A stretch of 64,000 nt of DNA. It comes from Eledone cirrhosa. Lineage: Eukaryota. The stretch spans positions 340,752,001-340,816,000 of the forward strand of contig OZ024741.1 in assembly GCA_964016885.1 (NCBI GenBank), given 5' to 3'. Positions within the stretch are counted from its first letter, which is position 1. Each line of letters opens with the position of its first letter. Positions 19,323 to 39,505 of the stretch are shown here, one piece after another. The position numbers and the translations under genes were made by a program. A model generated the notes under the pieces. That model ran no database searches. It was given only the letters and a program-made list of their open reading frames with translations, and was not told where the DNA came from.

Positions 19323-19458
19323 TCATCATTTTACGATCGTTTCTAGGATATATATGTGTGTTGGTATGTATATCATATAGATCTATGTAAAAATATTACA
19401 AACTATCATAGGAAATATACATACCTTCACATATATATGCTGTCTTCAGAAATAATGA
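19323..19458 (-). ncRNA. Hammerhead ribozyme with ~99-nt helix II (family F, left arm)
   Basis: Minus strand: TCATTATTT-CTGAAGA-[long hairpin]-GAAA-CGATCG-TA-AAATGATGA. Confidence 0.8.
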
Positions 19459-20279
19459 GATTTGTTTATTGAAAAAAACCAACAAAGATTTAATATAATA
19501 GGTCTTTTTGGGAACAGGTTTTGAATTGACCAATAGAAAAGTAGTAAGAGGTCAAGTTGATAGAATAATAGTAGTAGAAATTTAATTTAGGGGTAGAGGA
19601 ATGCAGACTTATGTTTTGAATGGAGAGAATACTTTGAATGAAAAGAATACTTTGGGGATGAAAAGAGGTCAAGCCGGTGAAGGGTACACGAAAATTTGAT
19701 GTTATTAAAGAATAATGTTAATGTTAAAACCGAAGGAGAGTAAAATTTTAGGGTAAAGGTATTAGTGAGAAATACCAATCTTATTTAAAACACAAGGAAT
19801 TTAGATCTATAACAAGAAATTAAATTAATTGATAGGTATACTTATAGGGATAAATTTATATTAATTCATATGGATGTGATAAATAAGAATTAGATGTTAT
19901 TAAAGAATGTTGTTAAAAACGAAGGAAAATAACATTTTGGGATAAGTGTAGTAGGGAGAACTACCAATCTTATATAGACTACAAGGAATCTAGATTCATA
20001 ACAGGAAATTAAATTAATTTATATGTATACTTTTAAGTATTAATTTTAGGAAAAGAGAGCTGTAAGAGGGAAATAAAATTATGAAGTTTTCTGTAGTAAA
20101 GTACTAATTATAGGTTAACTAAATTTAAAAAACTAATTATAATAATATGTAAAATATAAGTGTAAGGTGTATATTAATTAGTTTTATAATATTTGAAAGT
20201 TCTTCTAATTCTATGATTGCAAGATATAATTAATTCTTGTCGCTTATTTAATAGGATATCATTAGATTTCATTATTTCA

Positions 20280-20535
20280 AAAATATAATACTAAAAAACA
20301 TAATACTAAAATAAACCGCAACAAACCACCATCTTCACATATAACAAGTCGAGTAAATTCCACACCAAATTTGACTAACTCCCCTGATATAATATTCACG
20401 AATGGTTGTAACTGTAGAAACAAAAGAAATTGCCCATTAAAAGGAAATTGTCTTATTAATAACATAGTATATAAATGTAAAATTAGCACTAAGGACTCCA
20501 CTTATTCATATATAGGAGCTACGTCTAACCAATTT
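20280..20535 (+). pseudogene. PLE GIY-YIG endonuclease fragment
   Basis: Manual translation: NGCNCRNKRNCPLKGNCLINNIVYKCKISTKDSTYSYIGATSNQF (CxC-x4-CPL linker plus IVY...YIG). Confidence 0.88.
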
Positions 20536-20977
20536 AATAACATCTAATTCTTATTTATCACATCCATATGAATTAATATAAATTTATCCCTATAAGTATA
20601 CCTATCAATTAATTTAATTTCTTGTTATAGATCTAAATTCCTTGTGTTTTAAATAAGATTTGTATTTCTCACTAATACCTTTACCCTAAAATTTTACTTT
20701 CCTTCGGTTTTAACATTAACATTATTCTTTAATAACATCAAATTTTCGTGTACCCTTCCCCGGCTTGACCTTTTTCATCTCCAAAGTATTCTTTTCATTC
20801 AAAGTATTCTTTCCATTCAAAACATAAGTCTGCATTCCTCTACCCCTAAATTAAATTTCTACTACTACTATTCTATCAATTTGACCTCTTACTACTTTTC
20901 TATTGGTCAATTCAAAACCTGTTCCCCAAAAGACCTATTAAATTAAATCTTTGTTGGTTTTTTTCAATAAACAAATC

Positions 20978-21113
20978 TCATTATTTCTGAAGACAGCATA
21001 TATATGTGAAGGTATGTATATTTCCTATGATAGTTTGTAATATTTTTACATAGATCTATATGATATACATACCAAGACACATATATATCCTAGAAACAAT
21101 CGTAAAATGATGA
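20978..21113 (+). ncRNA. Hammerhead ribozyme with 99-nt helix II (family F, right arm)
   Basis: TCATTATTT-CTGAAGA-CAGCATATATATGTG..GGTATGTATAT...ATATACATACC..CACATATATATCCTA-GAAA-CAATCG-TA-AAATGATGA. Confidence 0.8.
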
Positions 21114-21919
21114 ATTTTTTAATATAAGGAACTTGTTCTTTGTTTTTATTCATTGTTTTATTAATTTATCTTGACTCTTTTCCTGTGATTTCCATCGAAA
21201 AATTTTGAATGCATCTTCTCTTTTCATGATATTTGGATTACATTGAGTTCTTCATACGGATTGGACACTACGTATATTTTGGTAGATTTATCTACATATA
21301 TATATATATATATATATATATATAATTAATGTATGTATATATATATATATACATGTATGTATATATATATGTATGTATGTATATATGTATGTATATATAT
21401 ATGTATATATATGTATATATACATACATGTATGTATATATATATATATGTATATGTATATATATGTATATATATATATATATATATATATATATATATAT
21501 ACATATATATATATGTATATATATATATATATATATATATATACATATATATATATGTATATATATATATATATATATATATACATATATATATATATGT
21601 GTATATATATATAAACATATATATACATATAAACATATATATATATATATACATATATATATATGTATTTATATATATACATATATATATATACATATAT
21701 ATATATGTGTATATATATGTATACATATATATATATATGTATATATATATATATATATATATATATATATATATATATATATATATATATATATATATAT
21801 ATATATATATATATATATATATATATATATATATGCAAGAGCGGTGCCCCAGCATGGCCCCAGCCGGATGGCTGGAACAGGTAAAAGTGTAAAATAGTAT
21901 ATGTATATATACATCTATC

Positions 21920-37018: not shown

Positions 37019-37054
37019 TTTAATCTGTTATTTTAATAAATATATATATATATA

Positions 37055-37547
37055 TATATATATACATAAATGGCAATTTCTGTCTGTTTGTGAACCGAAA
37101 ACTCATAAACTACCAAACCGATCTTGATGACACTTGACACGTGTGTGGGGACTCATGCCCGCTTGATTTCTTACGTATATTTCATTTTAATCAAAGGGTT
37201 CCCCGGAGGCACAAACCCCCGCTGAAATGTTTTCCCTTCGATTTATATGAAATTTAAACCATAGGTAAATGACAAGATATGGTGCCTATTCACAAACATT
37301 TTGAATTGATATTTAAAAAAAAATTATTTACAAGAAACAAAATAAGAATAAGATTTAATGATGTAATCTTGATTTGATATATTACAAAAAATAATGCTTT
37401 CCAATTTTACATGCATTACATTTTACATTGAGTAATATTGAAATGCAGAGTTTTTCTCCATAAATTATATCACTGATTTAAAATCAATTATCATTTTCTT
37501 ATTAAAAAAATGTGTGAAACGCAGCAAGGCACGGGTCATTCGGCTAG
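37055..37547 (+). mobile_element. Non-autonomous Helitron, related to 36122-36500
   Basis: 5' ATACATAAATGG..CTGTCTGTTTG and 3' CGCAGCAAGGCACGGGTCATTCGG-CTAG|T. The 3' ~200 bp are shared with the minus-strand copy. Confidence 0.7.
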
Positions 37548-37589
37548 TATATATATACATATATATATGCATATATATGAAAAAGTATG

Positions 37590-37684
37590 ACCCCGACGGC
37601 AGAGCTCAAGCCATTTCGACGGCTATGTCTGGACTAAATTAGAATTTTAGCCTGATAAACAAATAGCCGAAATTGTCAAGGGGT
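37590..37684 (-). ncRNA. Hammerhead ribozyme, U3-A8 variant with ~55-nt helix II (family D)
   Basis: Minus strand: ACCCC-TTGACAA-TTTCGGCTAT..GGCTAAA..TTTAGTC..ATAGCCGTC-GAAA-TGGC..GCCG-TC-GGGGT. Confidence 0.72.
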
Positions 37685-38361
37685 ACTTCCTTATATGGGA
37701 AGGTTGTACTTGTCAAGAGGATTGGTCAAAATTTGTTGTAAACACAAATAAGTCTATCATGGCATTTGGTGGGAGGTAGGGGTGGCAGAACTTGCCTGTA
37801 GAACAATGAGAGAGTGAGTGGAGCCGGTCAAGCGTTGAAAGTGATATGTATACAGCAGATTCCTTAGAATACACACACACATATATATATATATATATAT
37901 ATATATATATATATATACATATATATATATATATATATATATATATATATATATATATATATATACATATATATATATATATATATATATATATATATAT
38001 ATATATATATATATATATATAATACATATATATACATATATATATATATAATACATTTCTGGTAACAATATCGGCCGCCATGCTATGCAGCATAGAGTTA
38101 CCTCCCTTTATGGTCTGAGTTCAAATCCCGCCGAGGTTAACTTTGCCTTTCATCCTGACAGGGTCGATAAAATAAAGTACCCGTAATACACTGGGATAAT
38201 TACTGGCCTTGTGCCAAAAGTAGAAACAAGTATAACAATATGACACTCGCCAAGTATAACAATATATATATACATATATATATACATATACATATATAGA
38301 TATATATATATATAAATATATATATATATATATATATATATATATATATATATACATATAC

Positions 38362-39505
38362 ACAGTTCAAGAGTAACCAATCTTAAAGAGAGAGATGGAG
38401 ATAGGAGAGGAGAAGAGAGATTGGTGAATTAGTTAGAAACCAAAGCGTAAAGGCATGTGCTCAATGTGCAATATGCAATGGAAGGCAGCTAGGTGGCTGG
38501 GTTCATGCAGAGGTTAGGTGCACAGAGCTGGAAATATTCATTAGTTAAGCAAAACAAGACCACAGATTTCACAAGGAAGACATTATTAAAAGATTGTCAA
38601 CATATTTTAGTTTGATGTAAGGAATGTAGAGAATAATAATAATATTAATAATAATTGTTTCTACTTTTGGCACAAGGCCAGCATTTACCCAGTGCATTAC
38701 TGGTACTTTATTTTATCGACCCTGTAAGGATGAAAGGCAAAGTTAACCTCGGCGGGATTTGAACTCAGACCGCAAAGGGACGTAACTATGCTGGAAAGCA
38801 TGGCGTCCGACCCTCTACCTCTAATAATATTAATAATAATAATGTCCGTTTACAATTATTTCGCTACTCCATATAATATTTCTGCATCAAATGATTATAG
38901 ATCATTATTGATCTGGTTCAGTTGAAAATAATTAACATAGGTAAAAATAGAGCAACTCATCGGAACTTCAAAAGGAATATAAATTAAAATAAGGAAATAA
39001 TGTTACATGAATGTAATGTTCCATATATTGGTATTTCACTATGGTGTCCTGGGTATATCTATTGTCTGCCATAGTCGAGCAGTATTCTTCTGTCGAGTCT
39101 GCATTGTGTGAGATCTGCCTATTTTAATTTATATTCCTTTTGAAGTTCCGATGACCTACTCTATTTTTATGTTAATTATTTTCAACTGAACCAGATCAAT
39201 AATGATCTATAATCATTTGATCCAGAAATATTATATGGAGTAGCGAAACAATTGTAAACGGACATTATTGTTATTAATAATCCCGCCGAGGTTGACTTTG
39301 CCTTTCATCCTTACGGGGTCGATAAAATAAAGTACCAGTAATGTACTGGGTAATTGCTGGCCTTGTGCCTAAAGTAGAAACAATTATTATTAATATTATT
39401 ATTATTATTCTCTACATTCCTTACATCAAACTAAAATATATTGACAATCTTTTAATAATGTCTTCCTTGTGAAATTTGTGGTCTTGTTTTGCTTAACTAA
39501 TGAAT
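38362..39505. mobile_element. Family E fold-back with HHRs at 38848-38966 (-) and 39145-39259 (+), and a SINE in each arm
   Basis: 38535-38990 is inverted relative to 39120-39505. Both HHRs have the CCGATGA core and a long helix II. Confidence 0.85.

Follow-up and report, generated by a model that had tools for sequence, protein, structure and literature searches.

Motif anatomy and an intact core in family F

Can the two halves of a hammerhead core be held apart by a helix II of some 55 to 100 nt, and has such an architecture been overlooked in Penelope-like elements (PLEs)? The question is raised by a 64,000-nt stretch of the Eledone cirrhosa genome (contig OZ024741.1, hereafter the window), for which the original prediction proposed long helix II arms in four families, named F, E, H and D. 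A strict motif scan found 9 motifs in the window, whereas 30 dinucleotide shuffles gave 0.2 on average. Of the long-armed families, F alone has an intact catalytic core and, judging from its sequence, is predicted to self-cleave. Its two window copies are laid out as follows.

19323..19458, minus strand: F hammerhead, left copy, one of the two inverted window copies (motif span 19449-19333); helix I 5' strand 19458-19450, core CUGAAGA 19449-19443, helix II 19442-19344 (99 nt), GAAA 19343-19340, loop CGAUCG and U16.1 to 19333, A17 19332, predicted cut between 19332 and 19331, helix I 3' strand 19331-19323.
20978..21113, plus strand: F hammerhead, right copy (motif span 20987-21103); helix I 20978-20986, core 20987-20993, helix II 20994-21092 (99 nt), GAAA 21093-21096, loop CAAUCG 21097-21102 with the palindrome broken by a G to A change, U16.1 21103, A17 21104, predicted cut between 21104 and 21105, helix I 3' strand 21105-21113.

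The core of F (CUGAAGA...GAAA) is canonical and agrees with the type I consensus C3-U4-G5-A6-N7-G8-A9 plus G12-A13-A14, which the cores of E and H do not. The three-helix layout is also present: an open helix I of 9 bp followed by UA and the predicted cut, an A15.1-U16.1 pair, and cleavage predicted after A17 (H17, not G). Helix III consists of one pair and a palindromic loop, and positions 10.1 and 11.1, where a paired base of helix II is expected, are C and A. Among 34 F copies found by DNA similarity, CUGAAGA and GAAA were unchanged in every one, a C/U polymorphism in helix I kept either G-C or G-U pairing, and the palindromic loop was broken in 4, as in the plus-strand window copy.

The helix II of the right copy lies exactly where the original prediction had placed it (20994-21092), and the stems named there, ATATATATGTG/CACATATATAT and GGTATGTATAT/ATATACATACC, are present in the minimum-energy fold of this rod (-31.1 kcal/mol, z -5.5), for which 0 of 200 shuffles were as good. 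Runs of UA and UG make up the arm, whose length varies with the copy number of a 10-nt apical repeat. Twenty further copies of the F superfamily carried arms of 101-126 nt with minimum free energies of -11.7 to -46.8, and 19 of these 20 had a helix I of at least 4 bp.

A palindromic minimal helix III, as in PLE hammerheads of the dimeric kind, is formed by ACGAUCGU in the minus-strand F copy and by ACAAUUGU in E and H. The palindrome proposed for these families was thus found as CGAUCG in the former and CAAUUG in the latter two, and was absent from the plus-strand F copy (CAAUCG). Cofolding of two F copies gave -84.0 kcal/mol, compared with 2 x -36.3 kcal/mol for the separate molecules, and contained an intermolecular 8-bp ACGAUCGU helix III. 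A helix III this short, with a palindromic loop, implies a dimeric active form. As the two window copies are inverted, they would pair with each other in a read-through transcript.

The F element is a Penelope-like retrotransposon

The two hammerheads sit in the two arms of an inverted pair of insertions:

19266..20283, minus strand: F element, left arm; 5'-truncated, its end abutting a (TA)n tract ~65 nt past the cut site.
20296..21290, plus strand: F element, right arm, facing the left arm head-to-head; it has the long 3' form and extends as far as a (TA/TG)n microsatellite beginning near 21290 (end coordinate approximate).

Hammerhead motifs were located 45-70 nt from element ends adjoining (TA)n, (CAT)n or (CT)n tracts, and F copies showed variable, ragged 5' ends and head-to-head arms. 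The coding region upstream of the F hammerhead specifies an RT followed, at the C-terminus, by a GIY-YIG nuclease: two F copies yielded three ORF pieces that carry YRDD and CxC..GIY..YIG motifs and are collinear with residues 218-380, 375-479 and 558-713 of a 715-aa protein. Pfam searches of these pieces gave GIY-YIG alone, below the cut-off (E 0.027), and the 715-aa relative gave no Pfam match. A weak RVT_1 match at 22366-22965 (minus strand), the sole Pfam match among the window ORFs, was unrelated to F. An RT followed by GIY-YIG in one ORF, truncated insertions and a microsatellite target together place F among the PLEs with a C-terminal endonuclease.

The Hydra-clade PLEs of Craig et al. 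(2021, PMC8557442) resemble F in being compact (2,507 bp for Hydra-1_Obim, ~2.5-2.9 kb for the longest F copy seen), in their preference for (TA)n insertion sites, in their RT plus C-terminal GIY-YIG with CxC, and in having a hammerhead near the 3' end. Compared by eye with the supplement of that study, the F ORF pieces have FD(V/I)TMGS..GLYRDD, VNFLD(V/I)TLDL and CNCR..C in common with it, a likeness drawn from motifs alone. Among the 100 places listed for the CTGAAGA form, whose pair orientations were counted by eye, the close pairs (within 3 kb) comprised 17 of (-,+), 2 on the same strand (2 of 19) and 0 of (+,-) orientation; within the window, F has no sense tandem partner, its pair being inverted. 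Tandem copies in sense orientation, which might dimerise in cis, are rare.

Altered cores in families E and H and a compact family D

The other candidate motifs are listed below, with a slash at the expected cut position.

18866..18977, plus strand: E motif, copy 1; CCGAUGA (U4C), helix II 18873-18966 (94 nt), GAAA-CAAUUG-U, followed after U16.1 by A/AAC with a 3-bp helix I.
39148..39255, plus strand: E motif, copy 2; CCGAUGA, helix II 39155-39244 (90 nt), GAAA-CAAUUG-U.
30653..30753, minus strand: H motif; helix II 30746-30664 (83 nt), closing stem GUUGAUCAG/CUGAUCAAU, GAAA-CAAUUG-U-C/AGUAC.
24998..25085, minus strand: probable D, compact; core 25077-25071, helix II 25070-25058 (13 nt), GAAA 25057-25054, helix III 25053-25045.
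~25274-25368, plus strand: inverted partner of D, with GACA where GAAA is expected.

The long arm was therefore confirmed in F (99 nt), E (94 and 90 nt) and H (83 nt), and not in D, while the core, also claimed to be retained, proved intact in F and altered in E (U4C) and H (A9U). Position 4 was a C in all 41 E copies found by DNA similarity, and position 9 was a U in 25 of 25 parsed H copies; the H family majority reads CUGAUGU and the window copy UUGAUGU, with U3 as well. CpG decay was rejected as the source of the CUGA/CCGA difference, U4 being found in 0 of 41 E copies and 34 of 34 F copies. Helix II of E folded with z values of -2.5 (94 nt) and -3.7 (90 nt), and its helix I spans only 3 bp. 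That of H has a 9-bp closing stem and a z of -1.9 (11 of 200 shuffles as good), with a helix I of 5 bp and C at position 17. With such cores, E and H are likely to cut poorly or not at all. Position 39259, the end of the region originally described, falls within the short helix I of E copy 2. The four families had been regarded as unrelated; E, F and H have in common a GAAAC-RAUY-GU helix III module and the architecture.

For D, the sole in-range candidate with ~52-nt spacing was that at 25085-24998 (minus strand), which is probably the D of the original prediction. Its ~52-nt span was unfolded (minimum free energy -2.5, no closing stem), and a relaxed scan inside 19323-39259 found no motif with a ~55-nt arm. 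The family majority, derived from an alignment of 17 sequences, 15 of them from other loci and two being the window copy and its inverted partner there, reads GCU CUGAGGA U-CGC-CAACA-GCG-U GAAA CAGAAUCUG U C/AGC, so that the helix II of ~55 nt assigned to D gives way to one of 13 nt. Position 16.1 is a C in the window copy and a U in this majority.

Long arms predominate among motifs of this helix III class

Sequence patterns were counted forward and reverse across the genome against a backwards-pattern control; nested parses (6 of 98 in a sample) and copies with decayed helix I are among the counted matches. The pattern CUGANGA-N50-130-GAAACRAUYGU occurred 23,181 times (75 in controls), CTGABGA-N50-130-GAAACRATYGT 9,803 times (control 47) and the long-arm CTGAAGA form 13,378 times (control 28). 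The short-arm version (N4-49) was found 8,808 times (control 36), and long arms thus make up 72% of the canonical-core motifs in the GAAAC-RAUY-GU helix III class. The altered cores were also numerous, with 6,345 motifs for the CCGANGA form (control 95) and 1,448 for the CTGANGT form (control 83); a G5A form, taken as decay baseline, gave at most 1,197 (control 158), many of its listed rows being out of register. Arm lengths were 83-99 nt in the window families F, E and H and 58-126 nt in their relatives genome-wide.

Closing stems are family-specific but covariation is weak

A sample of 98 distinct motifs fell into 13 sequence clusters, and 92 motifs were left after dropping 6 nested parses. 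A helix II closing stem of at least 4 contiguous pairs was found in 42 of 92 own pairings, compared with 272 of 7,002 cross-cluster pairings, and a helix I of at least 4 pairs in 67 of 92 compared with 510 of 7,002, showing that both stems are family-specific and self-complementary. In the named structures 89-91% of cells were paired, against 23-62% for slid partners, the former values being inflated because each structure was taken from one member. Compensatory switches occurred both in F (AU 6 / GC 6; GC 5 / AU 4 / GU 4) and in families with arms of 58-63 nt (CG 28 / AU 9; GC 30 / UA 9).

Covariation of the arm over genomic copies had been proposed as one check. The 14-sequence F alignment alone passed it, with 7 pairs changed on both sides against 2.6 expected (0 of 500 shuffles as high); in the other two of the three alignments two robust covariation measures did not exceed shuffles (10 pairs changed on both sides against 8.9, 172 of 500 shuffles as high, and 6 against 6.2, 349 of 500). 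RNAalifold on MAFFT alignments returned 6 pairs (A1) and 0 pairs (A3). Classical covariation across the long-armed motifs is weak.

Pair 10.1/11.1, normally the best kept of helix II, was of a standard kind in just 19 of the 92 motifs. Taken whole, the arm folded clearly better than its shuffles in no more than 5 of the 13 clusters (median z of -2.4 or below). No match in the window reached the Rfam gathering thresholds. With E up to 10, the Rfam hammerhead models matched neither F nor a short-arm control copy (39968-39904), so that the lack of a match carries little weight for motifs of the PLE type; the matches obtained were low-complexity or hairpin miRNA-like only, with weak miRNA-like ones for the F arm.

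Discussion

Cervera and de la Pena (2014, PMC4209133) describe PLE hammerheads in which helix III is minimal and helix II, at 6-8 bp, exceeds the usual size. This corrects the assumption that PLE hammerheads usually have a very short helix II; according to the same source, those whose minimal helix III is palindromic are active as dimers, and in vitro cleavage by the minimal forms is weak. The motifs described here resemble them in type I order, short helix I, a short or one-pair palindromic helix III, the unpaired start of stem II and their location in PLE terminal repeats or ends. They depart from them in arm length (83-99 nt in the window and 58-126 nt genome-wide, instead of 6-8 bp) and in that both 10.1 and 11.1 are usually mismatched. 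In the rows examined from File S2 of Craig et al. (2021), the Hydra-clade hammerheads likewise have 3-7 bp in stem II and 2-4 bp in stem III; their stem II loops measure 4-10 nt, apart from one irregular case of 29 nt.

That motif searches limit helix II length was borne out by Craig et al. (2021, PMC8557442), in which core hits required a 7-17 nt spacer and only 'half cores' 35-50 nt apart were flagged. The Naiad 'HHR_half_core' entries, 2 of the 8 listed in file S1 being cephalopod Naiads, resemble our motifs in having core halves beyond standard descriptor spacing; they differ in that they were not accepted as hammerheads and that the Naiad nuclease is N-terminal, that of F C-terminal. In recent papers a 'long helix II' is one of 6 bp, and a literature search, with bioRxiv supplements and subscription journals outside its range, returned no description of PLE hammerheads with arms this long. 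Published searches have apparently missed them. The suggestion of an overlooked architecture therefore stands as regards real, very abundant motifs whose helix II is several times the published lengths, and falls as regards its premise on PLE hammerheads and the inclusion of D.

Chance assembly of AT-rich hairpins or microsatellite palindromes between CUGANGA-like and GAAA words might be expected in a window as AT-rich and as crowded with (TA)n and (TG)n tracts as this one, the more so because the F arm is itself of UA/UG runs with weak miRNA-like Rfam matches. For practical purposes the controls refute it: motifs in the window far exceed the 0.2 expected, pattern counts are 140 to 480 times those of the backwards controls, and thirteen arm clusters combine a common core and helix III signature with a helix I of their own, which leaves coincidence an exceedingly improbable source. 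We also think it unlikely that the motifs, at least those of E and H, belong to non-autonomous, retrozyme-like repeats that form small circular RNAs and are mobilised by PLEs. E and H were seen as short pieces only, without an ORF found in those pieces, many copies are a few hundred bases long, and a PLE origin of animal retrozymes has been argued for in a 2026 preprint; but retrozymes are sense tandem arrays, whereas 17 of the 19 close pairs mentioned above are head-to-head, the ragged 5' ends are the signature of 5'-truncated PLE insertions, and F has an RT/EN of its own.

A fold derived from the hammerhead that no longer acts as a ribozyme and serves the RT/EN as a 3'-terminal recognition or positioning element, its core kept for folding, is a possibility we hold only tentatively, and it is compatible with the PLE-hammerhead explanation. 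It would suit the U4C and A9U motifs, which form whole subfamilies far above the G5A decay baseline, the distance of 45-70 nt from the 3' end, and the H-type arm, whose interior letters are invariant across subfamilies with differing closing stems. It would also suit the Poseidon hammerhead, in which catalytic mutants had no effect on insertion in vitro and cleavage required protein. On the other side, the majority of long-armed motifs (23,181) keep the full canonical core, and helix I complementarity and U16.1-H17 are retained although a mere protein-binding hairpin would not need them. U4C itself is reported to be active enough for viroid infectivity by Perreault et al. (2011, PMC3088659), where a natural viroid U4C and a U10.1-U11.1 mismatch have residual or good activity. 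These are natural precedents for the U4C of E and for the common U-U, C-A and A-A at 10.1/11.1, with the difference that U4C is here fixed in whole retrotransposon subfamilies rather than in a viroid.

We consider it probable that these motifs are 3'-terminal PLE hammerheads of the type in which helix III is a single pair capped by a palindromic loop, and that their helix II has lengthened to 83-99 nt, reaching 126 nt in sister subfamilies. F is predicted to self-cleave; E and H are likely poor or inactive. F would probably cleave as a dimer or helped by the protein of the element. The Anolis Poseidon hammerhead cleaved only upon addition of the element's protein. Helix II would extend outward, pointing neither at the active site nor at the helix III dimer interface, so that its length could drift freely while the closing pairs join the core halves. 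The arm would then be a tolerated, slippage-grown extension, which may also hold a binding site for the element's protein. The thousands of copies in the U4C and A9U subfamilies suggest that efficient catalysis is not needed for copying, in agreement with the in vitro work on the Anolis element, where catalysis was dispensable for insertion. More speculatively, the long arm may be the main PLE ribozyme form in this lineage, what the element needs then being not efficient catalysis but the folded junction and arm, a handle for its RT/EN. If true, this would explain the thousands of U4C and A9U copies, and PLE clades listed without canonical hammerheads may carry arms too long for the descriptors used.

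Since hammerhead surveys use descriptors or covariance models of bounded stem and loop size, the ~23,000 canonical-core motifs with arms of 50-130 nt would escape them, and such surveys can miss most hammerheads of a genome. Natural arms of 13, about 60, 83, 99 and 116-126 nt on the same core offer material for relating helix II length to folding and dimerisation. The success, side by side, of canonical, U4C and A9U subfamilies constitutes a natural experiment on the importance of catalysis for copying and bears on the role of the hammerhead in Penelope-like elements.

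Hammerhead motifs in the window

The window derives from an AT-rich animal genome of 3.0 Gb, and (TA)n and (TG)n tracts are abundant throughout it. Rfam gave no match at gathering thresholds, and with E up to 10 no hammerhead appeared among the 150 of 244 hits listed for the window or among the matches listed for family F alone. A strict scan (CUGANGA, GAAA, U16.1, H17 other than G and at least 6 contiguous helix I pairs) found 9 motifs, whereas 30 dinucleotide shuffles of the window averaged 0.2. The original prediction had credited four repeat families (F, E, H and D) with a long helix II insert, here called the arm, and its description of F, with a 99-nt helix II, matched the sequence exactly; F is present as two inverted copies.

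Hammerhead motifs in the window
19449-19333 (-), F motif
20987-21103 (+), F motif
18866-18977, E motif, 94-nt arm (z -2.5), U4C core at 18866-18872
39148-39255, E motif, 90-nt arm (z -3.7), U4C core at 39148-39154
30753-30653 (-), H motif, 83-nt arm
39968-39904, 31498-31434, 2366-2306, 63090-63030 and 25683-25630 (all -), ordinary-arm hammerheads
41933-41856 (-) and 42667-42744 (+), ordinary-arm hammerheads
32927-32856 (-) and 35161-35232 (+), ordinary-arm hammerheads

The F motif consists of CUGAAGA, the 99-nt helix II, GAAA, a one-pair helix III closed by a CGAUCG loop (CAAUCG in the + copy), UA and a 9-bp helix I. The predicted fold of its arm is an almost uninterrupted rod at -31.1 kcal/mol (z -5.5), equalled by none of 200 shuffles. 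E has the core CCGAUGA and a 3-bp helix I, and the H copy has the core UUGAUGU; its arm is closed by a 9-bp stem and folds weakly in its interior (z -1.9). The long arm proposed for D is doubtful: the sole in-range candidate with a spacing of about 52 nt, 25085-24998 (-), does not fold. In an alignment of 17 sequences (15 from other loci, plus the window copy and the inverted partner it has in the window), the family majority reads as a compact hammerhead whose helix II measures 13 nt; the family has at least 1,321 candidate copies. Apparently, the core had been paired with a GAAA lying further downstream.

The ordinary-arm hammerhead motifs (26-36 nt) belong to at least four further families; most carry a UAUAUA palindromic helix III loop, and helix III measures 15 nt in one pair. 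At 57294 (-) and 57321 (+), the palindromic unit ...UUCGGGGAGGCAUACAUUUUUGCAUCCCC GAAA UAUAUAUA AUGAAAUAAAUAGUGAUG corresponds to the GAAA and palindrome half of a Penelope-like element (PLE) hammerhead, with no CUGANGA upstream. The E copies and their flanks (18040-19271 and 38071-39529) form a direct duplication with 20.3-kb spacing, 88-96% identical in pieces, and comparison of 19175-19271 with 39433-39529 placed F in the (TA)n tract after the first E copy only. The window also contains a minisatellite at 5343-16332 (54-nt unit, 204 copies, 94% match), whose + strand is strongly C- and A-rich (GC skew -0.84). Read in one frame it would give a Thr-rich repeat, but the longest open frame is just 614 aa. 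A 100-nt near-perfect palindrome at 35821-35920 scored 80 and 78 bits on the two strands against miRNA hairpin models (gathering score 100) and may be a foldback or transposon end.

Abundance and core states of long-arm motifs

F, E and H are all high-copy, with at least 1,176, 1,353 and 2,244 first-look candidates, respectively. The core and GAAA of F were invariant in 34/34 copies, and a C/U polymorphism in helix I turns G-C into G-U. All 41 E copies had C4, and the CpG at this position showed a C-to-U change in none of them; U9 was present in the 25 parsed H copies. Changes at A9 reduce hammerhead activity. Canonical-core sister subfamilies of E and H were also found (e.g. CUGAUGA-G-CUGCUC... 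and CUGAKGA-K-UUGRUCAG...).

Patterns were counted genome-wide on both strands, with the same pattern read backwards as control; these counts take in decayed copies and nested parses (6 of 98 in the sample described below). CTGABGA-N50-130-GAAACRATYGT occurred 9,803 times (control, 47) and the CTGAAGA long-arm form 13,378 times (28), a canonical-core total of 23,181. Since short-arm (N4-49) motifs numbered 8,808 (36), long arms account for 72% of the motifs in this helix III class that have a canonical core. Long-arm CCGANGA motifs reached 6,345 (95) in several families, and CTGANGT motifs, mostly H, 1,448 (83). The G5A decay control gave 1,197 (158), with many listed rows out of register, and U4C therefore lies far above simple decay. 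The CCGANGA motifs form whole subfamilies across several arm families, unlike scattered decay.

Published PLE stems II span 3-8 bp (PMC4209133; PMC8557442 with supplement), with one irregular case of a 29-nt loop (PMC8557442 supplement) and unaccepted 'half cores' 35-50 nt apart (PMC8557442). In the accessible literature searched, which included PMC4209133, PMC8557442 and its supplement files S1 and S2, PMC3088659, PMC13725137, PMC11167929 and bioRxiv 10.64898/2026.07.22.740005, arms 58-126 nt long were not found described.

Conservation of the arm structure

From 90 fetched loci we obtained 98 distinct motifs in 13 arm-sequence clusters, and the 92 remaining after removal of 6 nested parses were used for pairing tests, the closing stem being counted from 10.2/11.2. 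Closing stems of at least 4 contiguous pairs were formed in 42/92 own pairings versus 272/7,002 cross-cluster pairings, and helices I of at least 4 pairs in 67/92 versus 510/7,002, indicating that the stems surrounding the shared core are self-complementary and particular to each family. For named structures, 89-91% of cells were paired versus 23-62% with slid partners, and compensatory switches were clear within them. Other results argue against a conserved arm: RNAalifold on MAFFT alignments reported 6 pairs in one and 0 in the other, robust pair-count measures exceeded shuffles solely in the 14-sequence F alignment, and the whole arm folded clearly better than shuffles in just 5 of 13 clusters; a standard 10.1/11.1 pair was present in only 19/92 motifs. 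In the F superfamily, arm length ranged from 99 to 126 nt, the longer arms having gained additional units of a 10-nt apical repeat. This pattern suggests slippage, with arm length not tightly limited.

Nature of the elements

F copies have ragged 5' ends, common 3' ends and a frequent head-to-head arrangement. Upstream ORF pieces from two copies are collinear with a 715-aa protein (residues 218-380, with YRDD; 375-479; and 558-713, with CxC..GIY..YIG). Together, the pieces represent a predicted reverse transcriptase followed by a GIY-YIG nuclease at the C terminus, a hallmark combination of EN+ PLEs. By eye, the motifs resemble those printed for Hydra-clade PLEs by Craig et al. (2021, PMC8557442), who describe an octopus Hydra element of 2,507 bp with a (TA)n preference. 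The ORF at 22366-22965 (-), within a GC-richer block (22000-24000), has a weak RVT_1 match (E 5.9e-5, under cut-off) and is a remnant of a different retroelement.

In five clusters with flanks (six counting F relatives), the element ended 45-70 nt past the predicted cut, and a (TA)n, (CAT)n or (CT)n tract came next. Many families have AATAAA 5-10 nt after the predicted cut (loci L097-L126; alignment A1, columns 124-126), with the element ending some 35-60 nt beyond it, which would fit a poly(A) signal setting the 3' end. Among 100 places listed in the CTGAAGA search, pairs within 3 kb, scored by eye, comprised 17 (-,+), 2 same-strand and 0 (+,-). Nine wider (-,+) pairs on one contig (C1) of that list were 4.7-11.3 kb apart; five of them, at 4.7-5.3 kb, span about twice a 2.5-kb element and may be full-length head-to-head insertions.

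Cleavage or structural role

The ACGAUCGU segment of F is self-complementary, and two F copies cofolded 11.4 kcal/mol better than two monomers. The predicted cofold is a classic double hammerhead with intermolecular helix III, in agreement with the dimer model of Cervera and de la Peña (PMC4209133). Because sense tandems are rare, any cutting would depend on copies associating in trans or on help from a protein, the latter by analogy with Anolis Poseidon, for which such help has been reported. A structural, non-catalytic role of the motif is a serious rival to cleavage, because catalysis was reported as dispensable for Poseidon insertion in vitro and because the U4C and A9U subfamilies have been successful.
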